Positions 6,793-22,609 of a DNA stretch of 31,369 bases are shown in pieces; positions within the stretch are counted from its first letter, which is position 1, and the number at the start of each line of letters is the position of its first letter. Origin of the DNA: Thermoplasmata archaeon (lineage in GTDB: Archaea > Thermoplasmatota > E2 > UBA202 > DSCA01); NCBI GenBank assembly GCA_008297795.1, contig VBQP01000012.1:1-31369 (forward strand), written 5' to 3'. The notes under the pieces are model-generated. The model was not told the origin of the DNA. It saw nothing but the letters and a program-made list of their open reading frames with translations, and searched no databases. Position numbers and translations under genes: made by a program.

Positions 6793-6873
6793 GGGCCCGT
6801 AGCTTAGCCAGGTGGAGCGTCTGGCTCATAACCAGATGGTCGCCGGTTCGAATCCGGCCGGGCGCCGGGCCCA
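6793..6873 (+). tRNA. tRNA-Ile2 (CAU, agmatidine-modified type) with a 7-nt duplication in the 3' acceptor strand
   Basis: GGGCCCG acceptor 5' strand, D-arm GCTT/GAGC, anticodon stem TCTGG/CCAGA with CAT at 6827-6829, T-arm GCCGG-TTCGAAT-CCGGC, then CGGGCGC CGGGCCC A. The GGGCCCG...A73 pattern matches archaeal Ile2 rather than Met. Confidence 0.85.
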
Positions 6874-10705: not shown

Positions 10706-11267
10706 TTTTTATTTCGACTACCTGTTTTACCCACAATCTGGAAGAGGTTATTTTTCCATCATCGACATAGGCAATTCTGAGGGGACCATCATCAAAATTG
10801 TATTCTCCGTCCTCGGCATAAGCAAGAAGCATTGTCACGCCGCCTGCACCGCTTTCATTTCCGCTGGTATCGTAAGTCGTAACGTTGCCAAGAATTTCAT
10901 CCATTGTATAATTTACCGAGTAGTTGTCTGAGGCTATTACCTGTATTTCATACTCCCCGGGAAGATTAAACTCGTCGAGAAACTTTATCATCCTCACTCC
11001 TGTGTAACTTTTAACGCCTTTGATGTCCCCATGTGAGGTTTTATACCCGCCTGTTCCTGTAAATTCATCAATTTTTTTCAAATCGGAAAGAGTGTAGTTA
11101 TATCGCTCGTCGCCATAATACACTGTGAGAAGCACTTCTCCTCCAGTTTCTTTTCCTGAATTGCCCGAATGATTGCTGTATAGATTGTAATATGCAAAAA
11201 CCCCTACCGCGACAAGAATTGCCACCACAAATATTCCCCCCACTATCTTATCCATATTTTTCGCCAT
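10692..11267 (-). CDS. Membrane-anchored extracellular protein with oxidoreductase molybdopterin-binding-like fold
   Basis: N-terminal TM helix; YTLSDL...YTGVRM...ASDNYS...GPLRIAY...WVKQVVEI pattern of the sulfite-oxidase-like domain; no Cys; several N-x-S/T sequons. Confidence 0.65.
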   Translation of the reverse strand: MAKNMDKIVGGIFVVAILVAVGVFAYYNLYSNHSGNSGKETGGEVLLTVYYGDERYNYTLSDLKKIDEFTGTGGYKTSHGDIKGVKSYTGVRMIKFLDEFNLPGEYEIQVIASDNYSVNYTMDEILGNVTTYDTSGNESGAGGVTMLLAYAEDGEYNFDDGPLRIAYVDDGKITSSRLWVKQVVEIKIIEI

Positions 11268-13107: not shown

Positions 13108-13213
13108 GGCCCGGGTGGTGTAGCGGTAACATAAGGGACTGTGGATCCCTTGTCTCGGGTTCAAAAGAGAATATGCAGGGAGTTGCATTCTCATGAAAAT
13201 CCCGGCCCGGGCC
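13108..13213 (+). tRNA. tRNA-His(GUG) with genomically encoded G-1 and a 34-nt intron at 59/60 (13166-13199)
   Basis: G-1 + GCCCGGG / CCCGGGC + C73; anticodon stem AGGGA/TCCCT with GTG at 13141-13143. The T-loop is interrupted; removing 13166-13199 restores TTCAAAT. Confidence 0.92.
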
Positions 13214-13461
13214 CTCCATCATTTTTCACTCTAAAAATTTCAAAAGGGGCGGGGGGAGAGGCGGCATTTAAACCACCTGGAGTAGAGAGCTAATCTTGTC
13301 CTCCCCCCAGTTTGCTATCTTTTTGCTATCATAATGATAATATTCTGGCAATATATAAAACTATCGATTTTTTTCTGTATTCTCATTCACTTTTCAGATA
13401 GCATTCTCATCAAAAAAAATATAAAGTTTATTATATCATTTAAGCAATATTTACACACAAA

Positions 13462-15543
13462 ATGACCGATTTCATATATCTCGTGCCATCACTGGTGGCT
13501 GCAATATCACTTCCATCAGTTGCTTTTTATTTACTTACAAAAAAACCGAGGAGGATTTATGTTACAGTACTCTCCGCATTCTGCCTCGATCTGTTTTTGT
13601 GGAATATAAGTATTGCCCTGATAAATATACTTGGCGTGGAGAATCCCTATTCGGTAGTAATAGCAAAAATAGGTTCGGCAGGACTCATACTCGTTGCACC
13701 CATCATATTTCATTTTATAGTGGCATATACTGGATATATAAAGACCAAATTGTGGTACCCTCTCGTGTACGGTCCTGCATTTTTCCTCCTTCTCTCATTA
13801 TTCACAGATTATTATGTCAAAGGAGTTACCGTCAAGGGCTTCGGAGTAGAACCTGTCTATGGTCCACTTCTGCAGGCAAATGATTTGATTGCACTGATAA
13901 TCATAATATTTTCCACTCTTCTCATATTCAGATATTATAGAGAAAGTGCCGGCATAAAAAAATATCAGAGTTTGTATGTTTTTATTGCAGTGCCACTCTC
14001 CAGCATTCTTTCCTTTATAAGTTACGAGATTCTGAGTGTTTCCATGAACACGTCGCAGTTTCCCGTTGGCTCGAGCATAGATGTGGGAGTGGCTTATATT
14101 CTTGTGTACGCAATATTGAAATTCAAATTGCCGGTCGAGACGGCTGCAGAGGTGGACTTCCGCATTCTTGCAGAAACAGCGAGCGAGGGAATCTGCATCA
14201 TCGATAATTCGGGCAATATAGATTATGCCAATTCTCACTTCTCTGAAATGGTGGGTGTACCAAATAAAAATATTGTGGGCGAGGAGTTCAGGAAATTCGT
14301 GCCCCGCGAATATCATGCCGAACTCAGAAAAACCATCCGCAGAACGATGAAGGGGGAAAAGTTAGCCAATGTGGATATGGAACTGAAAGGCAGGGGGGGA
14401 AACCTGAGTGTTGAGATAAATACGTCTCCAATTATAGTGAATGATAAAATCATAGGGGCTTTTGTGACCATAAGGGACGTTACCGAAAGGAAGAAAACGC
14501 AGGAGGAGTTGAACAGACAGAAAGTGTATTTCCAGGCACTTTTTGAAAGTTCACCTGAAGCAATTGTCTCTCTCGATAAAAACCATAATGTTCTCGATAT
14601 TAATTCTTCATTTATAAAATTATTCGGATACACTCTCGATGAGGTTAAAGGCAAAAACATAGATGATTTCATACTGCCTCCCGAAAAAGAAAAGGAAGGA
14701 AGAGATATAACAAAAAAAGTCATAAGCGGAAATACGTTTGCCACCGAAACTGTCAGAAGGAGGAAGGATGGTTCTCTCGTTCCTGTTTCCCTGCTTGGCG
14801 CGCCGATATTCGTGAACGGCGAACAGGTTGGAATTTTTGGCATTTACCGCGATATCACCTCGCAGAAGGAGGCGGAGGAGGAGAAGGAATTTTACAACTC
14901 TCTTCTGCGCCATGATGTTGCCAACAGAAACATGGTCGTTCAGGGTAATCTCGAAATTCTTGAGAGTTCTAATCTTGAGGAGGAACAGAAAAATCTTGTT
15001 TCCAATGCGCTGAATGCTGCAAAGGCAAGTACGGACCTCATTAACAAAATAAGGGAGTTGAGGGCCGTGGAGGGAGATGAAGCACAACTCAAACCTGTGG
15101 CTGTGGACGAAAGCATATCGAGGGCAATAAAAACAAACATGCAGCAGGCAGAAAATTTCGGCGTTAAAATAAATTATAGGAAAAGTGGTGCAGTAATCAG
15201 GGCTGGCTCTCTGGTGGACAACATATTTTCAAATCTGATACAGAACGCGATTATACACTCAAATTGTAAAAATATAAACATATATTGCGACAGAGAAAGA
15301 AAATACGGAAAGGAATTCTGTAAATTGTCGATAGAGGATGACGGCAAAGGAATACCTGACGAGTTGAAAAATGATATATTCAAACCAGGCATAAAAAGAA
15401 GGGGAAGCCCCGGAAGCGGTCTCGGTCTCTATCTTGTTAAAAAACTCGTTGAGAAATACGGGGGATGGATGGAAATACGGGACAGAATAGAAAACGGCGA
15501 GAAAAAAGGCACCATATTCAATATCTATCTGGAGATGGCTTGA
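13462..15543 (+). CDS. Membrane sensor histidine kinase (7TM N-terminus, two PAS domains, HisKA, HATPase)
   Basis: About 7 TM segments; two PAS repeats (ETASEGICIID..., FESSPEAIVSLD...); H-box LLRHDVAN; N-box NLIQNAIIHS; G1 DDGKGIP; G2 GSGLGLYLV. Confidence 0.93.
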   Translation: MTDFIYLVPSLVAAISLPSVAFYLLTKKPRRIYVTVLSAFCLDLFLWNISIALINILGVENPYSVVIAKIGSAGLILVAPIIFHFIVAYTGYIKTKLWYPLVYGPAFFLLLSLFTDYYVKGVTVKGFGVEPVYGPLLQANDLIALIIIIFSTLLIFRYYRESAGIKKYQSLYVFIAVPLSSILSFISYEILSVSMNTSQFPVGSSIDVGVAYILVYAILKFKLPVETAAEVDFRILAETASEGICIIDNSGNIDYANSHFSEMVGVPNKNIVGEEFRKFVPREYHAELRKTIRRTMKGEKLANVDMELKGRGGNLSVEINTSPIIVNDKIIGAFVTIRDVTERKKTQEELNRQKVYFQALFESSPEAIVSLDKNHNVLDINSSFIKLFGYTLDEVKGKNIDDFILPPEKEKEGRDITKKVISGNTFATETVRRRKDGSLVPVSLLGAPIFVNGEQVGIFGIYRDITSQKEAEEEKEFYNSLLRHDVANRNMVVQGNLEILESSNLEEEQKNLVSNALNAAKASTDLINKIRELRAVEGDEAQLKPVAVDESISRAIKTNMQQAENFGVKINYRKSGAVIRAGSLVDNIFSNLIQNAIIHSNCKNINIYCDRERKYGKEFCKLSIEDDGKGIPDELKNDIFKPGIKRRGSPGSGLGLYLVKKLVEKYGGWMEIRDRIENGEKKGTIFNIYLEMA

Positions 15544-16831
15544 ACCTTTTCAGGGGTTTGGATAGATGCCTTCTTGCCACAACGTCCACCTCATAAAATC
15601 CTGGCTTTATGCCCCTCTCCACCTTCTCAAAGGTCGCATCCTCCTCTTTTGCAGTTGTACCGCATTTTATGCATCTGTAACCCTTCCCCTTTCCAACTGA
15701 TTTCATATGTTTGCCGCATTTCGTGCATATGGGATTTTCCTTCTTTTTATAAACTTCTGCGAGAGAATGTATTTCTATCTTTTCTATGTTAATCGTGCGG
15801 GGTTTATCTCTAACGCCGCCATATACTGTCACTCTGTCCCCTTTTCGAAGTCTTCTCACCAGGTTTCTGAAGCTCTTGGTCGGCTCATAGGCAGCACATT
15901 CTATCTCATTTCCATCGCAAAGAGAGAAAATGACATGCCCTCCCTCTATCGTCCTTGGTTCTCTGCATACCTCACCTGTAACAATCACAGATTCATATGC
16001 CACCACTTCCCCTATTTTCCTTCTATTGAGGTGTTCATCTGTTGCCTGGTTTGTTTCGAAAATCATCCATCTTTTTATTTTTCCTGAAACAACGTATTCC
16101 ATAGCTTCTCTCAATTCTTGGTAATCATCTCCTCTTATACCATACATCACCGGGCAGGGAGAATTTGGCATTATCTGGACATGGCGGTTTATGTAATCAT
16201 AATTATCAAATGTTTTTTTGAATTTTCTATCCATTCTCTTGACAGATTCTTCATCAACCCACCTCTCCCCACCATTACGGTAAGTTATTATCTCATATGT
16301 TCTGTCGCGGGGGCGCCATGATACTGCTGCCGAGGCTCCTATCAGTCCCCTCCCATTTTTGTACGGTATGTATAGCGCACCCATTTCATCAAGAACGTTC
16401 TTGATATCATTTATCTCCACAACGCTCCTCACTGCCTTTCTGTATAGCGAATAAGGGGGCTTTTTTTCTATGACAACAAGCCCGGGGTTTGTCTGCTCGC
16501 TTTCCATCATTGCCCTTTTTCGCACAATTTTATCAATTCTTTCAAGCACTTTTTCAGGTTCTGTCTTGCCGTCAGATATCTTTTTCTCATAGCAATATCT
16601 TTTTCCTTCAACATATCCAATCTCCGTCCTCCGCCCTCCCCCCCTGCCAAACTGGATTGCAATCGCCCCGTTTCCTCTTGTTTTCCACGGGATGTTTGGG
16701 TTGAGGCGGACAAGGCGCGGCATGCCTATTATGTCCATTCCGTCTTCATTCAGGGCTTTTATTATATCGCATGCAAGATGCGTGGTGCACATGCCTTCTC
16801 TCGAGTCGGTATCGTCTATTCCAAGCCACAC
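15518..16831 (-). CDS. tiaS: tRNA(Ile2) 2-agmatinylcytidine synthase
   Basis: GIDDTDSREGMCTT, LVRLNPNIPWKTRGNGA, HGRGLIG-like NGRGLIGASAA, TNQATDEHL, OB fold (CAAYEPT), C-terminal Zn ribbon CTKC..CIKC and RHLSKPL. Confidence 0.96.
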   Translation of the reverse strand: MWLGIDDTDSREGMCTTHLACDIIKALNEDGMDIIGMPRLVRLNPNIPWKTRGNGAIAIQFGRGGGRRTEIGYVEGKRYCYEKKISDGKTEPEKVLERIDKIVRKRAMMESEQTNPGLVVIEKKPPYSLYRKAVRSVVEINDIKNVLDEMGALYIPYKNGRGLIGASAAVSWRPRDRTYEIITYRNGGERWVDEESVKRMDRKFKKTFDNYDYINRHVQIMPNSPCPVMYGIRGDDYQELREAMEYVVSGKIKRWMIFETNQATDEHLNRRKIGEVVAYESVIVTGEVCREPRTIEGGHVIFSLCDGNEIECAAYEPTKSFRNLVRRLRKGDRVTVYGGVRDKPRTINIEKIEIHSLAEVYKKKENPICTKCGKHMKSVGKGKGYRCIKCGTTAKEEDATFEKVERGIKPGFYEVDVVARRHLSKPLKRFKPSPDRY

Positions 16832-16866
16832 AAATTTTTTATATGTGAAAGTAGTATTTTAGTTTG

Positions 16867-17775
16867 ATGAAAAAGGAGCTGCTGGCAGACACGAGAGAGC
16901 TGTTAGCACGTGCAGGATTCTATGTATCGGACATATGCAACATACGCCCTTCGAGTTTCGACTTTGTCGCAAGGAGAGATGACACTCTGCTTGTTGTAAA
17001 AGTACTGAATAACATAGATGCCCTCAGCGAGGAGGTTGCAAATGAACTCCTCCTTCTTGCAAAGCATCTTGATGCCATTCCATTGCTCATAGGCAACAGA
17101 ACAAGTTCGGGTCCTCTTGAGGACGAGACCCTTTATTACAGGTACAGGGTGCCAATAATAACCTATGGGACACTCAATGATTATCTCCACGGAATAATGC
17201 CAATTGTGACTGCAGCTCCTGGAGGATTTTATGCCAGCATGGATGGAGAAAGGATAAGGCAAATAAGGGAGGAGAAAGGTATCTCTATAGGGCAACTTGC
17301 AAGGGCTGCAGGTGTCTCAAGAAGGACAATAAGGATGTATGAGCAGGGGGAGAGGGCGACGGTGGAGGTTGCAGAAAAAATAGGTTCGTTCCTCGGAGAA
17401 GACATACTCAAACCGATTGATATGAAGGAATTCATAGAGAGTTATGAATTCGAGATAGAGAGGAGAATACACGACGATATGCTTTCCATGGTTGAGTCTC
17501 TTGGTGCATCCATTCTGCCAACCCTGCGTTCCCCTTTCAATGCAATATCTGAACTTCTGGACGATTTGCTTCTTGTGGGGACAAATAAGAGAAGGATTGC
17601 AGAGAGGGCAAGGATAATGTCAAACATATCAAGGGTGATGGAGCGGCATTCTGTATTTTTCATAGAGGCATCATCTAAAAAGAATATAGAAGGCATACCT
17701 GTTATAGATAAAAAGGAACTTTCAAGAATAGACGAGCCGCTCGGGCTGCTTGACCTCATCAGGGAGAGAGAGTGA
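16867..17775 (+). CDS. Archaeal HTH transcriptional regulator (COG1395-type, Cro/C1 HTH)
   Basis: SSFDFVARR..LVVKVLNNIDAL; central HTH RQIREEKGISIGQLARAAGVSRRTIRMYE; divergent from tiaS. Confidence 0.88.
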   Translation: MKKELLADTRELLARAGFYVSDICNIRPSSFDFVARRDDTLLVVKVLNNIDALSEEVANELLLLAKHLDAIPLLIGNRTSSGPLEDETLYYRYRVPIITYGTLNDYLHGIMPIVTAAPGGFYASMDGERIRQIREEKGISIGQLARAAGVSRRTIRMYEQGERATVEVAEKIGSFLGEDILKPIDMKEFIESYEFEIERRIHDDMLSMVESLGASILPTLRSPFNAISELLDDLLLVGTNKRRIAERARIMSNISRVMERHSVFFIEASSKKNIEGIPVIDKKELSRIDEPLGLLDLIRERE

Positions 17776-18443
17776 CTCTGAAAGTTGAATTGCTGGCGTA
17801 CACCCCTGAGGGGGAGATTTTATCTGCCATGGCGGCAAAACTCACACATTCTAAAAGCAGCATTGGCGAATTGAGAAACAGTGACAAGGAGGAACTGAAG
17901 AACATTCTCAGATACGTCGTAAAGGCAGGTCATGAGAGCGTTATAGAGCATGCCTATTTCACATTTGGAATTTCTGGTGTTTCCCGCGCTCTCACCCATC
18001 AACTTGTGCGCCACCGTATTGCCTCTTACTCACAGCAGTCGCAGCGGTATGTCGAGAGCGAGATGGAATATGTCATTCCTCCGTCGATTAAAGAGGCAGG
18101 AGTTGAGGAGGAATACAAAAAAATGATGGAGAGTGCATGGGACGCTTATAACAAACTCAAGGAGAAGGTGCCTGTTGAAGATGCCCGCTACGTTCTCCCA
18201 AATGCCGCATGCACACAGATAATGGTTTCCATGAATGCCCGCTCTCTGCTGAATTTTTTTGAATTGAGATGCTGCCTCCATGCCCAGTGGGAAATCCGCC
18301 ATCTCGCATGGAAGATGCTCGGGCTTGTGAAAAAAGTTGCACCTGTAATATTCGAGAACGCAGGACCACCGTGCAGGACAAAAAATATCTGTCCCATGAA
18401 CAAGAAAGACTGCAAGTGGTACCCTGACAGTCATTCACTTTGA
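17772..18443 (+). CDS. thyX: FAD-dependent thymidylate synthase
   Basis: GHESVIEH, SRALTHQLVRHRIASYSQQSQRY (RHR-x7-S motif), EDARYVLP, AQWEIR; GTGA overlap with the upstream stop. Confidence 0.96.
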   Translation: MTLKVELLAYTPEGEILSAMAAKLTHSKSSIGELRNSDKEELKNILRYVVKAGHESVIEHAYFTFGISGVSRALTHQLVRHRIASYSQQSQRYVESEMEYVIPPSIKEAGVEEEYKKMMESAWDAYNKLKEKVPVEDARYVLPNAACTQIMVSMNARSLLNFFELRCCLHAQWEIRHLAWKMLGLVKKVAPVIFENAGPPCRTKNICPMNKKDCKWYPDSHSL

Positions 18444-20144
18444 GTAAGGCTGAGAAAGCGGATGAAAATCAAAATTTACCCACGGAAACGGGAATCTCCA
18501 GCCCCAGATGGGTTTGGGAAGCAGGTGGGGACTGCCCCAGTAGTTGCCATTCCAGTCGTTCAAAGAAGGTTTTAGATTTCCCGGATAAATAAAGGTTGCA
18601 TCCCTGCTGTTATCCACGAAGTTATTTTTTGTTATGGTGTTGCCGAAGGAGCCCACCCGAATGCCGATTGAGTTGTATAAAAAATCATTTTTTTGCACAG
18701 TCGTTTCATCACTTGAGGATGAAATGTCGATTCCATACTCATTGCGAGAAATAGAATTTCTTTCAATATTATTTTTCAGGCAGTTATAAGACAGGGATAT
18801 TCCTCTATCGTTGTTTTCTATTGAGTTGTTTAATATTTTATTTCCGGAACTCTCCTGCCAGATGGTTATACCCTCAGCATTATACATTATGATATTTTCC
18901 GTTATCATATTGTCATAACTTCCGTAATCAAGATGAATCCCGTGCCAGTTATCTGCTATTGTATTGCCTGAAATGGTGTTATTATCAGACCATGTAGTTA
19001 TTCCTCTGCTGTTGTTTTTGATCAGGTTAGCATTGATTTTATTTTTGCCGCTGAAAGGGGCGATATCCACCCCGGCATATCCACATGAGGATATATCATT
19101 TCCCCTGATATCGTTAAAAGTTGATTTAAAGAGGTTTATCCCAATCCAGTTATCTGATATTTTGCTCGAATATATTTTACATCTCTGGCTATTGAATAAA
19201 AATATCCCTACTGTTGTATTTGATATCTCCTGATTTTTTATGGTGATATTGGAACAGTTAACAAGAATTATCTGCCCCGCATCTTTTTCCAATTCTATAT
19301 CTGAAGCATTTTCAATATATGCAAGAGGTTTACCGTTTACTGTATTATTCCTTACCCTGTTTGAATGGTATTCGTAGAAATATTCAAGACCTGAACCGTA
19401 AAACGAGTTGTTTTCCACCACATTTCTATTTCCAGAGAGAGACATGCCGTTATGTGTCTCCGATATTATTGTATTGTCTGAAAAATAATTCCCTGTCCCG
19501 CCCAAAAAAACACCTGATGAAAATTCTATTTCGTCTATTGTGTTGTTTATTATTAAGTTCCAGTTCGAATTCGATATCCATATGCCAACCCCGTATTTTG
19601 ATGTTATATTGTTTCCTCCCAAAATATTTTGGGAGCCATTTCCCATGAATATCCCTGTCCTGCAATCGAAAATTTTGTTATTCTCTACCACACTCCCTGT
19701 AGCCCTGATATTTATTCCATCCCCTGAGTTATAAATTATGTTATTTTTTATATCTGATTCATACATGCAGTAAATACCTGCATCGCTTTCATTCCTTCCG
19801 CTATTTGTTACCGTAAAATTGCTGATAGACGAGGGCGCTTTTATGGTTATGACACTTCCTTCCCCGCCGCCGTCTATTATTGTACTTTCGGCATTTTCCC
19901 CGACCAACGAAATTTGCTTTGTTATTACAATATGCTCGTGGTATGGGGCAGAATCATCATAAACATATATGGTAAAGCCGTCGCTTGCATTATCTATTGC
20001 AGATTGGATGGTGGTGTAATTCCCTGCGCCTGAGCCACCAACATGCAACACTTTCCCCAAACCAATGCTTTCGGGACTGCCTCTCACCATTAAAGATGCC
20101 AGGAGAATAAAAATTACAGTTATTGTCTTCAAATAATTCATCAT
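18435..20144 (-). CDS. Secreted right-handed parallel beta-helix (PbH1/NosD-like) surface protein
   Basis: Signal peptide; HVGGSGAGNYTTIQSAIDNA..GxTIYV; many N-x-I-x-xN / GI-x-L repeats; C-terminal WNGNYW...PWVNFDFHP. Confidence 0.88.
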   Translation of the reverse strand: MMNYLKTITVIFILLASLMVRGSPESIGLGKVLHVGGSGAGNYTTIQSAIDNASDGFTIYVYDDSAPYHEHIVITKQISLVGENAESTIIDGGGEGSVITIKAPSSISNFTVTNSGRNESDAGIYCMYESDIKNNIIYNSGDGINIRATGSVVENNKIFDCRTGIFMGNGSQNILGGNNITSKYGVGIWISNSNWNLIINNTIDEIEFSSGVFLGGTGNYFSDNTIISETHNGMSLSGNRNVVENNSFYGSGLEYFYEYHSNRVRNNTVNGKPLAYIENASDIELEKDAGQIILVNCSNITIKNQEISNTTVGIFLFNSQRCKIYSSKISDNWIGINLFKSTFNDIRGNDISSCGYAGVDIAPFSGKNKINANLIKNNSRGITTWSDNNTISGNTIADNWHGIHLDYGSYDNMITENIIMYNAEGITIWQESSGNKILNNSIENNDRGISLSYNCLKNNIERNSISRNEYGIDISSSSDETTVQKNDFLYNSIGIRVGSFGNTITKNNFVDNSRDATFIYPGNLKPSLNDWNGNYWGSPHLLPKPIWGWRFPFPWVNFDFHPLSQPYSK

Positions 20145-20209
20145 GCCTAATCCTGAGCAGACATATAATTTTTCTTACGCTATGAAAAGCATTTATATTA
20201 CTCTTATAT

Positions 20210-21196
20210 TTGTCAGAGAAGATGCTGATTCCAAAACGCCGCCGTTTAATAAAGGCAGAGGCAGAGACAAACCCCAATTACGGGAAACCGCCAAAAAGAA
20301 GAAGTGTTGAGGAGAGCATAGAAAACGGAGTGGTGATAGTTGACAAACCTGCAGGTCCCACATCCCATCAGGTGAGCGCTTGGGTAAGGGACATTTTCGG
20401 TGTGGAGAAGGCGGGGCATGGCGGCACGCTTGACCCCAATGTGACGGGCGTTTTGCCAGTTGCACTATCAAATGCAACAAAGGCAATTGGCTTACTTCAT
20501 TCTGCAGGGAAAGAATATGTGGCGGTTATGCGCCTTCATGGCGATGCAGGAGAGGAGGAAATAAGGAAAGCGTGCAATCGCTTTATTGGAAAAATACGCC
20601 AGACGCCACCCAGAGAAGCGGCCGTGAAAAGAGTTGAGAGAGAGCGTGAAATTTATTATCTTGATATAATTGAAATAAAGGGGAGAGATGTGCTTTTCAA
20701 GGTTGGATGCGAGGGTGGGACATATATAAGGGTGCTTTGCGAGGATATTGGGAAGGTGTTGGGGTGCGGTGCCCACATGCACGAGTTGAGAAGGACGAGA
20801 AGCGGCATTTTTGAAGAAGAAGATGTCCATACGTTGCATGACATTCTCGATGCGTATATATTCTGGAAAGAGGACGGTGACGAGGAAATAAAAAACATTA
20901 TAAGGCCCATGGAAGATTTACTTTCCCATCTGCCCACTGTGGTTGTAAGAGATTCGGCTGTTGATGCGATATGCCACGGTGCATCACTTGCCCTGCCTGG
21001 CATTCTGCAGGTTGATACGGGCATAGAGAATGGCACAGTTGTTGCAGTCAAAACATTGAAGGGAGAAGGCGTTGCGATAGGCACTTCTCTCATGTCAACA
21101 AGGGAAATGATGGAAAGGGATGCAGGCATTGCAGTTAACACGACAAGAGTACTGATGAGAAAGGGAACATATCCGCCAATGTGGAAGAAAAAATAA
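20210..21196 (+). CDS. cbf5: H/ACA RNA-guided pseudouridine synthase Cbf5 (TruB family, PUA domain)
   Basis: DKPAGPTSHQV, GHGGTLDPNVTGVLP (catalytic Asp), GTYIRVLCED, ELRRTRSG, PUA domain, C-terminal YPPMW. Start may instead be ATG 20222. Confidence 0.96.
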   Translation: MSEKMLIPKRRRLIKAEAETNPNYGKPPKRRSVEESIENGVVIVDKPAGPTSHQVSAWVRDIFGVEKAGHGGTLDPNVTGVLPVALSNATKAIGLLHSAGKEYVAVMRLHGDAGEEEIRKACNRFIGKIRQTPPREAAVKRVEREREIYYLDIIEIKGRDVLFKVGCEGGTYIRVLCEDIGKVLGCGAHMHELRRTRSGIFEEEDVHTLHDILDAYIFWKEDGDEEIKNIIRPMEDLLSHLPTVVVRDSAVDAICHGASLALPGILQVDTGIENGTVVAVKTLKGEGVAIGTSLMSTREMMERDAGIAVNTTRVLMRKGTYPPMWKKK

Positions 21197-21199
21197 AAT

Positions 21200-21284
21200 G
21201 CTGAGGTAGCCCAGCCCGGAACGGCGCAGGCCTGGAGAGCCTGTGGGGCTCTGCCCCTCGAGGGTTCAAATCCCTCCCTCAGCG
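21200..21284 (+). tRNA. tRNA-Ser(GGA)
   Basis: GCTGAGG/CCTCAGC acceptor, G73, anticodon GGA at 21234-21236, long variable arm (GGGGC/GCCCC), T-arm GAGGG-TTCAAAT-CCCTC; begins 3 nt after the cbf5 stop. Confidence 0.95.
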
Positions 21285-21295
21285 TAATTTTTATC

Positions 21296-21751
21296 TCACC
21301 ATATCTCCAAAAGCCTGAGAAGGTCTTTCACTACCTTGGGGCTTACGTCTGAAAAATTGAATTTGGATTTCCCGCCTGACCACTTTATTATTAATTCATG
21401 GGAGTTAATATCCTCATTTGAAGAATCCCTCCTTATTTTTATGGATTTTACCCGATTCCTGTCAATGGAAAAATTGCCATTTGTTTCTGCAATTATATCT
21501 GCAACAGGCATTGAAAAGTATCTTTTATACAGATTTATGCCTGCTGTCATTGTTGCGCCCATGCGTTTGAGGCGCCCTGCTCCCTGCTCTTTCAATTCGT
21601 CTGAAACTCTTTTTGATTCTTCTTTTATCATGCTGCTTGTGAGTTGAGCCACGATAATGCCTTTGTCGGTTGCAACTAAATTGTACATTTTCTGCCCGAA
21701 AACACCACTTTTAACATTAGGGATAACTCCCAGAATCTGTTCTTCATTCAT
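21296..21751 (-). CDS. Hypothetical protein (possible PH-like fold)
   Basis: 151 aa with ATG start and natural-looking composition; beta-rich N- and C-termini (YNLVATDKGIIVA; VKSIKI..ELIIKW). Confidence 0.7.
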   Translation of the reverse strand: MNEEQILGVIPNVKSGVFGQKMYNLVATDKGIIVAQLTSSMIKEESKRVSDELKEQGAGRLKRMGATMTAGINLYKRYFSMPVADIIAETNGNFSIDRNRVKSIKIRRDSSNEDINSHELIIKWSGGKSKFNFSDVSPKVVKDLLRLLEIW

Positions 21752-21893
21752 AGAAATAACCTTAAATGTAACCGATGTGATGTTTTAATATTTGCCATCT
21801 GAAAAATTACCGTGAGATTGCAAAGTGTAGTCAGGTTTTTATTAAAAGAATGGATTGGTGATGGAAGTAAACAATAACTCGACTTCGCAGTTT

Positions 21894-22147
21894 TTATCCC
21901 GTCAATCCAAGCCTTTCTAAATCGTCTTCACTCCATTTTGCTTGTTCTTCTATCATGATTTTCAGTAGTTTCTGAGGAAATGTTTGACTTCCCTTATGAT
22001 ATGAAAGAGTAACTCTTTTCCCATCTGGATGCCTAAAAATTTTATGGCTTCCTGATTGCCTAACTAAAGAAAAAAACCATCTTTTAGTAAAGCCAAAGCA
22101 AATTTTCTTGCCGTTAGACCCCTCAATCTGGAGTAATCTACTGCCAT
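21894..22147 (-). pseudogene. hicA: HicA-family toxin, frameshifted at a T7 run (plus-strand A7 at 22070-22076)
   Basis: Frame 1 from ATG 22147 gives MAVDYSRLRGLTARKFALALLKDGFFL* (TAG 22066-22064); the -1 frame continues SLVRQSGSHKIFRHPDGKRVTLSYH..., with the HicA GSH motif. ATG directly follows the hicB stop. Confidence 0.85.
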
Positions 22148-22402
22148 CTAAACGGTTACAGAAATAAAAGGCTCTGGAGATATCTTTGCTCCTCTCTTTC
22201 TTAGATCTTCTTCGAGTGAGTTTAACTCTCCGCATTCTTCCATATCTTCCAATACAAGTCTGACAACTTCCTCTAAGTTTATTATTGCTTCTTCCCTTGT
22301 ATTTCCCCAAGTATCTCCTCCTCTATCTTTCAGTTCAGGGATGTATGCTGCCCACTTTCCCTCCACTTCTTCAACTGTTGCCTTGAAAGTATATGTCTTC
22401 AT
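22148..22402 (-). CDS. hicB: HicB-family antitoxin (short form, no obvious DNA-binding domain)
   Basis: WAAYIPEL...TWGNTREEAIINLEEVVRLVLE, the partial RNase H fold signature of HicB. Confidence 0.88.
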   Translation of the reverse strand: MKTYTFKATVEEVEGKWAAYIPELKDRGGDTWGNTREEAIINLEEVVRLVLEDMEECGELNSLEEDLRKRGAKISPEPFISVTV

Positions 22403-22478
22403 TATGTTTTTTTATTCATATTCCATATACGTAGCTTTCTGTAAAGGGCATGGCAATGTATTATGAAATTCGCATCAT

Positions 22479-22490
22479 AAAAACAAAAAA
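22479..22490 (-). terminator. Oligo-T terminator after tRNA-Gly
   Basis: Minus-strand TTTTTTGTTTTT immediately after the discriminator base. Confidence 0.55.
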
Positions 22491-22609
22491 TGCGGGCGCC
22501 GGGATTTCCGAGCATGCAGCGAGGAAATATGCCTTGCTCGCAGGGCATGCATTCGAACCCGGGCAGTGAGCTTGGAAGGCTCAAATCCTAACCGCTAGAT
22601 CACGCCCGC
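22491..22609 (-). tRNA. tRNA-Gly(UCC) with a 47-nt intron at 59/60 (22505-22551)
   Basis: Minus strand: GCGGGCG/CGCCCGC + A73; TGAGC-CTTCCAA-GCTCA; CCGGG-TTCGAA|intron|T-CCCGG. Splicing restores TTCGAAT. Confidence 0.92.

Follow-up and report, generated by a model that had tools for sequence, protein, structure and literature searches.

T-loop introns at position 59/60 of tRNA genes in a Thermoplasmata archaeon whose relatives encode a predicted loop-less alpha'2 splicing endonuclease

Relaxed or non-canonical introns in archaeal tRNA genes have been linked to splicing endonucleases (EndA) of the (alpha-beta)2 or epsilon2 type, or to enzymes carrying the loops L1-L3 (PMC5829648; PMC3239211), and it has been argued that the loops matter more than the subunit type (PMC5829648). 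In reviews, euryarchaea whose enzymes are of the alpha4 or alpha'2 type are said to have few introns, one per gene, with strict motifs and located at 37/38 (PMC4090602), and the EndA enzymes of Thermoplasma acidophilum and Archaeoglobus fulgidus are classed as narrow in published assays (PMC6379350, Table 1). The A. fulgidus EndA is also reported to remove a bulge-helix-loop (BHL) intron from a full-length pre-tRNA (PMC6379350), and this case, together with the argument on loops, means that the rule tying architecture to specificity was already soft. Position 59/60, in the T-loop, is a known insertion site, as the relaxed intron of the ARMAN-2 pre-tRNA-Cys is cut in vitro by an epsilon2 enzyme (PMC3239211). 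Copying of introns among tRNA genes is known from the Thermoproteales (Fujishima 2010, as related in PMC4090602 and PMC4033280), and serves as a positive control in a 2026 preprint. Here, we describe two tRNA genes, tRNA-His(GUG) and tRNA-Gly(UCC), that are interrupted at 59/60 in a 31,369-nt stretch of DNA from a Thermoplasmata archaeon (GCA_008297795.1, contig VBQP01000012.1; the whole stretch is hereafter the window), together with the splicing endonuclease predicted for its lineage. Nothing specific on T-loop or other non-canonical introns in Thermoplasmata or Thermoplasmatota was found in the literature searched, the coverage of which was incomplete and makes for weak evidence of novelty; nor does that literature describe a wealth of T-loop introns in a lineage of the Thermoplasmata type, genes with two introns or intron families spread across tRNA types.

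The window is one contig (C25) of a metagenome-assembled genome (MAG; G000) of 788 kb in 66 contigs, which is 70% complete and has a GC content of 44%. DNA of this locus occurs in marine-sediment and hydrothermal-vent metagenomes, and no RNA dataset is listed among those that contain it. An earlier interpretation made from the letters of the window (the sequence-only reading) had proposed a Thermoplasmata-like host, and the close relatives are indeed Thermoplasmata/Thermoplasmatales archaea; the order concerned is an uncultured one of the Thermoplasmatota. When the window was scanned with ARAGORN, only tRNA-Met(CAU) and tRNA-Ser(GGA) were reported and both interrupted genes were missed; Rfam matched tRNA-His in its 5' part only (a partial tRNA at 13109-13161, 31 bits) and missed tRNA-Gly. 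ARAGORN called tRNA-His gtg and tRNA-Gly tcc only once the inserts had been removed in silico. The tRNA-His gene has acceptor strands GCCCGGG/CCCGGGC and a TCGGG/CCCGG T-stem (landmarks G-1 at 13108, T-loop TTCAAA at 13160-13165, U60 at 13200 and C73 at 13213), while tRNA-Gly, on the minus strand, has a CCGGG/CCCGG T-stem (G1 at 22609, TTCGAA at 22557-22552, U60 at 22504 and A73 at 22491). An A/T-rich box approximately 25-30 nt upstream and a T-run downstream can be read for both genes, and the intron 3'-end strings quoted in the sequence-only reading occur once each, at 13184-13199 (+) and 22505-22518 (-). The coordinates are collected in Table 1.

Table 1. Interrupted and uninterrupted tRNA genes of the window, with elements of the predicted splice motif (a slash marks the predicted cut).
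Feature	Position	Strand	Basis
tRNA-His(GUG) gene, G-1 and C73 encoded, T-loop interrupted	13108..13213	+	sequence; Rfam (5' part); ARAGORN after in-silico splicing
34-nt intron at position 59/60 of tRNA-His	13166..13199	+	removal restores TTCAAAT
U54-A57 (TTCA), exon strand of central 4-bp helix H	13160..13163	+	pairs with 13194-13197 (TGAA) in minimum-energy fold
A58 A59/A(i1), 5' splice site in 3x1 internal loop	13164..13166	+	fold
Unpaired A; intron strand of helix H; 3' bulge AA/U60 with 3' splice site	13193; 13194-13197; 13198-13200	+	fold
tRNA-Gly(UCC) gene, T-loop interrupted	22491..22609	-	sequence; ARAGORN after in-silico splicing
47-nt intron at position 59/60 of tRNA-Gly(UCC), TGCATG...GCATGCTCGGAAA family	22505..22551	-	sequence, fold, splicing in silico
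tRNA with CAU anticodon, without intron	6793..6866	+	ARAGORN, Rfam
tRNA-Ser(GGA), without intron	21199..21285	+	ARAGORN, Rfam

Folding with RNAfold placed the two inserts in the same register. In tRNA-His, the T-stem is followed by a 4-bp helix UUCA/UGAA (helix H) with an AAU bulge, an internal loop of AAA opposite a single A (3x1) and then the intron hairpin. In tRNA-Gly the helix is UUCG/CGGA, again with an AAU bulge; the minimum-energy fold has an extra A58-U pair, giving a 5-bp helix with a 2-nt bulge, an arrangement equivalent to 4 bp and a 3x1 loop. The flanking helices are the T-stem (5 bp) on the outer side and the intron hairpin (4 bp in His, 6 bp in Gly) on the inner side. The 3' bulge, AA/U, is exact in both genes and the 5' site of both is a 3x1 loop, not a clean bulge. 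Cutting after the second base of each bulge, by the standard bulge-helix-bulge (BHB) rule, would remove exactly the insert and restore UUCAAAU or UUCGAAU. This confirms, by sequence and by RNAfold, the proposal of the sequence-only reading that the His and Gly inserts lie at the same T-loop site with the same bulge, 4-bp helix and 3x1 geometry. The window introns are thus relaxed, not strict, members of the BHB class.

A total of 68 T-loop introns, 63 of them distinct, were parsed in 24 genomes related to the MAG. The AAU 3' bulge is invariant (68/68), helix H measures 4 bp in 60 of the 68, and intron removal restores a 7-nt UUCRAAU loop in every parsed case (68/68). A simple helix heuristic and RNAfold, in which single calls are soft although the trend is clear, class the 5' site as a clean 3-nt bulge in just 9 introns, with 59/68 non-strict overall; the commonest forms are a 3x1 loop (15) and a 4x1 loop (18). 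Nearly all of the introns keep an inner helix, so that the relaxation is mild and the motifs are not open bulge-helix-loops. Base 57 covaries with its intron partner, the first base of the intron strand of helix H: among the 63 distinct introns the pair is A:U in 30, G:C in 25, and A:C and G:U in one each. Judged by this covariation and by the universal restoration of the loop, the predicted T-loop pairing motif exceeds chance. The 37/38 introns of Glu, Leu and Trp genes look strict, although the parse is unreliable for some genes.

Two further points concern the body of the introns. A possible internal pairing of TTTCC with the GGAAA tail was seen in 5 of 35 introns against 1.4 expected, and is not convincing. 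The 44-49-nt introns of both main families (L064, L067, L072, L076, L095 and others) have in common a central R-Y-TTTCC or ACTTCC element and look like a short hairpin intron to which its own 3' arm has been added once more, an appearance that points to an internal duplication or to alternative hairpins.

Whole-MAG scans found approximately 24 tRNA genes, about seven of which carry an intron at 37/38 and three an intron at 59/60: the two of the window and a tRNA-Lys(UUU) on contig C23 (~11040-11149, minus strand). The Lys intron is 31 nt long, and its helix H consists of 3 bp and a G-A mismatch. A search of the whole MAG found one gene each for tRNA-His and tRNA-Gly(UCC); being single-copy, both should be functional. 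RtcB ligase is encoded in the MAG. Standard tRNA finders miss the interrupted genes and the inserts are rich in hairpins, as might be expected if the latter were insertions resembling miniature inverted-repeat transposable elements that inactivate their tRNA genes, or else artefacts of assembly. We regard this as the least probable of the explanations considered. It would leave the MAG with neither a His nor a Gly(UCC) gene, and does not account for a His insertion site that is conserved across two families, for the covariation in helix H or for a perfect T-loop upon every insert removal. Furthermore, a search of the whole MAG for free-standing intron copies outside tRNA genes found none, contigs from independent metagenome runs carry the same interrupted sequence, and no metagenome contig of the four runs skips either window intron. 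The inserts are almost certainly spliced introns, as far as can be judged from sequence.

In the same metagenomes, loose ends were seen at 13165 and 22551, where contigs run from TTCAAA or TTCGAA directly into TCCCGG and the acceptor strand. These contigs with intron-less His- or Gly-like T-arms are low in depth or divergent and come from co-occurring relatives, with assignment to a given one not possible.

The sequence-only reading had also held that the two window introns resemble each other in sequence. This did not survive alignment. Once the last 6 nt had been taken off, local alignment gave at best an 8-nt match (TGCATTCT/TGCATGCT) with a score of 11, no better than chance (9.1 +/- 1.9 over 2000 shuffles, P=0.17), and among 67 candidate partners for the His intron the Gly intron comes 40th. 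The common YGRA-AA tail is forced by pairing to the T-loop. In congeners, His and Ala genes carry AGAG/AGAAGG-type introns, to which the window His intron is similar. The Gly intron is matched best by a tRNA-Arg(CCG) intron (genome G034), with the orthologous Gly(UCC) intron of another relative (G036) ranking behind it. The idea that one window intron derives from the other by recent transposition inside this genome draws on their common position and motif, on an 8-nt TGCATNCT found in both and on the fact that such transfers do happen in relatives; given a similarity that does not rise above shuffles and a grouping of the His intron with the AGAG/AGAAGG type and of the Gly intron with the TGCATG family, it is improbable. 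On present alignments, the two introns are not detectably related and belong to different families.

The His 59/60 intron occurs in nearly all genomes of the order, with lengths of 18-49 nt and rapid sequence turnover. The Lys(UUU) intron is 84-90% identical in three relatives (G004, G006 and G007), with near-identical sequences in five other genomes of family f1. Both the MAG and G001 have the Gly(UCC) intron, which the Gly(UCC) genes of two congeners (G003 and G004) lack. The three T-loop introns of the MAG have separate histories: that of His is old and order-wide, that of Lys family-wide and conserved, and that of Gly patchy and part of a mobile family.

For the wider survey, 40 related genomes were searched with both window genes, and the matches were fetched and parsed. 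A census was made with the pattern GGTTCRAA-N(10-50)-GRAAATCC, using the reversed pattern as control and counting totals from tables. In the order (39 genomes) the pattern has approximately 180 matches, up to 12 per genome, versus 3 for the control; the rest of the class (158 genomes) yields 50 versus 24, and genomes across the phylum (401) mostly have 0-3 each. The 68 parsed introns interrupt the T-loops of tRNAs for His, Gly (UCC, CCC, GCC), Arg (UCU, CCU, CCG, UCG), Lys (UUU, CUU), Glu (CUC, UUC), Ala (CGC, GGC), Ser (CGA, GGA, UGA), Met, Leu (CAG, UAG) and Gln. Up to about a quarter of the tRNA genes hold a 59/60 intron in this order, and several genes bear two introns, at 37/38 and 59/60.

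Within single genomes of relatives, identical introns were found in different tRNAs. In G023 the His and Gly(GCC) introns are identical (44/44) although base 57 of their hosts differs, and in G021 the same is true of Gly(UCC) and Arg(CCU) (45/45) and of Arg(UCU) and Gln(CUG) (16/16). The tRNA bodies and acceptor stems differ in all three pairs. If a transposed family is taken to be introns with 80% identity or more across at least two tRNA types of a single genome, an Ala/His family in G004 and a Leu/Gly family in f23 (below) qualify as well. Among intron pairs that serve different amino acids, 3.1% of those within one genome and 0.3% of those between genomes reach 80% identity or more, a ten-fold difference. 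T-loop introns have thus been copied among tRNA genes within the order, so that the spread proposed by the sequence-only reading holds for the lineage while the kinship of the two window introns does not.

Outside the order, one further family, f23 (G211 and G218), from a different class of the same phylum, has 7 and 13 pattern matches and represents a second, unrelated expansion of T-loop introns, whose hosts include Leu(CAA) and Gly(CCC) tRNAs. The two f23 intron families read ATGAAGGG...TTTCAAAACCTGCA... and ACAGCCCTTTC...GCGGAAAGGCG..., with the 5' site apparently within an open multiloop. The EndA of f23 is a single two-domain open reading frame (ORF).

We searched the MAG for endA with the PF01974 profile and with a congener protein and did not find it, which at 70% completeness is no evidence of absence. 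A single EndA ORF of 318-410 aa with two PF01974 matches is present in 36 of the 40 relatives, including all four genomes of the same genus, and neither a separate beta-subunit ORF nor a three-unit protein occurs among the EndA matches of the relatives. The proteins of two congeners (P0001 and P0002, of 343 and 344 aa) contain two PF02778 and two PF01974 domains according to Pfam. In the C-terminal unit FRVY...HAPY...SV(R/K)K is invariant, and the catalytic Tyr/His/Lys are kept only there. The His and Lys positions of the N-terminal unit are not conserved across the order, and this unit is therefore the structural one, as in alpha'2 enzymes; a still-catalytic N-terminal unit, which the Y...H...K visible in genus g1 might suggest, was ruled out for the same reason. 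Two alpha'2 endA copies per assembly were observed in G008 (contig C75, 204-974 and 5305-6075, in inverted orientation) and in G038 (contigs C109 and C37).

The catalytic unit aligns almost gaplessly with the alpha subunit of Methanocaldococcus jannaschii (1A79, without insert) and with A. fulgidus EndA. Neither the CSL/ASL (L1/L2) site, whose loop in broad-specificity enzymes bears a conserved Lys close to the catalytic His, nor the C-terminal L3 site has an insert in these alignments, and there are no extra residues at the point of A. fulgidus EndA that received the grafted CSL, the Crenarchaea-specific loop (3P1Y). Within the spans that align, the unit is shorter than Aeropyrum pernix alpha by approximately 12 residues, Nanoarchaeum equitans alpha by approximately 8 and the ARMAN-2 unit by approximately 4. 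An AlphaFold model of a congener EndA (pLDDT 89.3, pTM 0.83) has its best match in both sequence and structure with the Methanopyrus kandleri beta-alpha fusion 5X89 (TM score 0.86/0.88 by query/target length, E 7.6e-36), and also resembles the alpha'2 enzymes of A. fulgidus (1RLV, 0.78/0.87) and T. acidophilum (2OHC, 0.65/0.76). The EndA of the lineage is colinear, with no indels, with that of the intron-poor sister families f4, f5, f6 and f9. A basic residue (FxG[KR]) in the loop equivalent to L1 was considered as a trait specific to the order and ruled out, as it also occurs in intron-poor f4.

From the relaxed motif, the sequence-only reading had deduced an atypical EndA. The published association of relaxed or non-canonical introns with (alpha-beta)2, epsilon2 or loop-bearing enzymes (PMC5829648; PMC3239211) would favour such a broad-specificity enzyme as the permissive factor, and the absence of endA from the assembly leaves the enzyme of this genome unseen. 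However, the relatives consistently carry one plain two-unit alpha'2 ORF with no beta-subunit partner, third unit or specificity loop, the comparison with sister families lacking an intron expansion shows no indels, and the one conserved basic residue is not confined to the order. An atypical EndA architecture is largely refuted for this lineage, and we consider it very improbable that such an enzyme accounts for the introns. Instead, the lineage encodes a predicted single, loop-less, tandem-repeat EndA of the alpha'2 type, seen in the relatives and not in the MAG itself. Unrelated introns and a standard alpha2-type enzyme were two of the three findings that the sequence-only reading had itself named as counting against it, and both were made; the third, that T-loop introns are already widely reported for the lineage, was not borne out by the literature searched.

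We therefore favour, with a probability of roughly 0.8, the view that these are genuine BHB-class T-loop introns at 59/60, copied among tRNAs and removed by an ordinary alpha'2 EndA. Several points weigh against it. With alpha'2 enzymes classed as narrow (PMC6379350), cleavage of 3x1 or 4x1 sites by a loop-less alpha'2 enzyme is unexpected, and this EndA may need substitutions or a helper not visible here. The enzyme of the MAG is extrapolated from congeners, its own endA being unseen. The significance of the position-57 covariation (Fisher, 7e-14) is overstated, because the introns come from kin and are not independent. Alternative pairings exist for the 5' sites, and for the window His intron the heuristic gives 2x2 where RNAfold gives 3x1. 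Lastly, the gene anatomy, the covarying helix, the distribution and sharing of introns and the EndA architecture of relatives are shown, while we infer splicing in vivo, the cut positions, the enzyme acting in this genome and the copying mechanism from sequence, and for splicing and cut sites this counts on the same side.

A related alternative keeps the coevolution rule intact at the level of function, with the alpha'2 enzyme broadened by point substitutions or by a partner protein. It is consistent with the non-strict 5' sites in 59 of 68 T-loop introns, including those of sole-copy essential tRNAs, with the mere 24-31% identity to characterised alpha'2 enzymes, and with an unusually complete N-terminal unit, which can be aligned from end to end with M. 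jannaschii alpha and belongs to a protein whose top structural match is the M. kandleri fusion. But no order-specific indel or motif was found, the relaxation is mild with the inner helix still there, and plain alpha'2 may suffice if A. fulgidus EndA removes a BHL intron from full-length pre-tRNA as reported (PMC6379350). Functional broadening is, on balance, unlikely, albeit a far stronger contender than an atypical architecture. With either form of alpha'2 enzyme, the predicted substrates encoded in these genomes argue against strict EndA specificity.

If an ordinary alpha'2 EndA does remove these introns, splicing could proceed as follows. In the precursor, the T-stem would serve as the outer helix, and U54-R57 would be paired to the four bases of the intron just ahead of its terminal AA. 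Of the two cuts, that on the 3' side would fall inside the AA/U60 bulge, and that on the 5' side after A59, in a small asymmetric loop closed by the intron hairpin. EndA would cut both sites and RtcB would join the exons to give UUCRAAU. The exon half of this motif (T-stem and UUCR-AA-U) is near-identical in all tRNAs, hence an intron ending in YGRA-AA should be spliceable from almost any tRNA, which would explain copying among many tRNA genes at a single site. Position 59/60 may in this way act as a universal landing pad; the identical G023 intron would serve hosts with A57 and G57 alike through a U able to pair with either. DNA-level conversion primed by the conserved T-arm and an RNA intermediate are both possible routes of copying. 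With U54-A57 paired until splicing, the T-loop, its modifications and the D/T elbow would be unable to form beforehand, and the sequestration of U54/U55 until that point, remarked on in the sequence-only reading, would follow directly from the pairing. Since an alpha'2 EndA would have to remove these introns, it should tolerate 59/60 sites with 3x1 or 4x1 5' loops, at least in this phylum.

The key result is the opposite of what the relaxed motif had led the sequence-only reading to expect: an ordinary-looking alpha'2 enzyme is found alongside an expansion of T-loop introns. Relaxed T-loop introns beside a plain alpha'2 EndA contradict the textbook pairing of such introns with (alpha-beta)2 or epsilon2 enzymes or with special loops (PMC4090602; PMC6379350; PMC5829648). 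A bolder generalisation, possible though in our view doubtful, is that at least two Thermoplasmatota lineages (the order and f23) carry mobile hairpin introns specialised for the T-loop, with loop-less alpha'2 enzymes that are broad in practice. If true, this would break the proposed coevolution of EndA architecture and loops with disrupted tRNA genes. T-loop introns may gate T-loop modification and elbow formation until splicing. They could also interrupt the T-arm-to-3'-end sequence used as an integrase attachment site, and strain-variable DNA abuts the 3' end of the window tRNA-Gly. With one site, short introns and a small enzyme, the system is a testable one for the basis of EndA specificity and for the movement of archaeal tRNA introns. 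As standard tRNA finders miss interrupted genes, the tRNA complements of such MAGs are under-counted.

A number of other features were observed in the window and elsewhere in the MAG. Directly 3' of tRNA-Gly (end at 22491), one contig of metagenome run X1 has 1236 different letters in place of the stretch 21800-22488 of the window, and contigs of run X2 skip this stretch; strain-variable DNA at the 3' end of a tRNA gene is reminiscent of tRNA-targeting integrative elements. Between the two intron-bearing tRNAs lies a gene for a full-length TiaS, the tRNA-Ile2 agmatidine synthetase (15518-16831, minus strand; TCKD, FLD, OB and zinc-ribbon domains), and the CAU-anticodon tRNA is encoded in the same window. 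Elsewhere, contig C52 (22002-22144, minus strand) carries a tRNA-Trp(CCA) gene whose 37/38 intron, 69 nt long, includes GTGATGA and CTGA motifs and is similar to the C/D-box guide RNA that euryarchaeal tRNA-Trp introns are known to contain. On contig C50 (37420-37525, minus strand), a tRNA 3' part with a long extra arm or intron is truncated by the contig end, and is mislabelled by ARAGORN as tRNA-His(atg).

The closest described counterpart of the introns is found in Candidatus Micrarchaeum (ARMAN-2), which has a 59/60 intron with a relaxed hBH motif in pre-tRNA-Cys(GCA) and introns at both 53/54 and 59/60 in tRNA-Pro(GGG) (PMC3239211). Common to both cases are the T-loop site, a one-sided relaxation of the motif and genes that escape standard tRNA finders. 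Unlike in ARMAN-2, where a bulge is lost, the inner helix is retained with a 3x1 or 4x1 loop, and the site is used by up to approximately 12 tRNA genes per genome. The enzymes differ too, that of ARMAN-2 being a three-unit epsilon2 EndA with an ASL loop and that of the present lineage a predicted loop-less alpha'2. With the Thermoproteales, the order has in common near-identical introns in different isoacceptor tRNAs of one genome, and a spread limited by the requirement for a splicing motif; in contrast, all of the copying documented here concerns 59/60, the one site examined, within a phylum of euryarchaeal type and alongside an alpha'2 EndA.

On the side of the enzyme, the alpha'2 proteins of A. 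fulgidus (1RLV, 2GJW) and T. acidophilum (2OHC) are likewise single chains of two tandem units with C-terminal catalysis and no specificity loop. The EndA of the lineage is 30-50 residues longer than these and has a near-complete, alpha-like N-terminal unit. These two enzymes count as narrow and their hosts are described as having few and canonical introns, whereas the present lineage has many non-strict ones. The (alpha-beta)2 EndA of M. kandleri (5X89; PMC5829648) also lacks an L1, L2 or L3 loop, and M. kandleri still has some relaxed introns; its EndA is encoded by two separate genes, fused for crystallography only, and processed relaxed motifs poorly in vitro (PMC5829648). A loop-less alpha'2 enzyme beside so many non-strict T-loop introns departs from the rule in either version, whether framed in terms of subunit architecture or of specificity loops.

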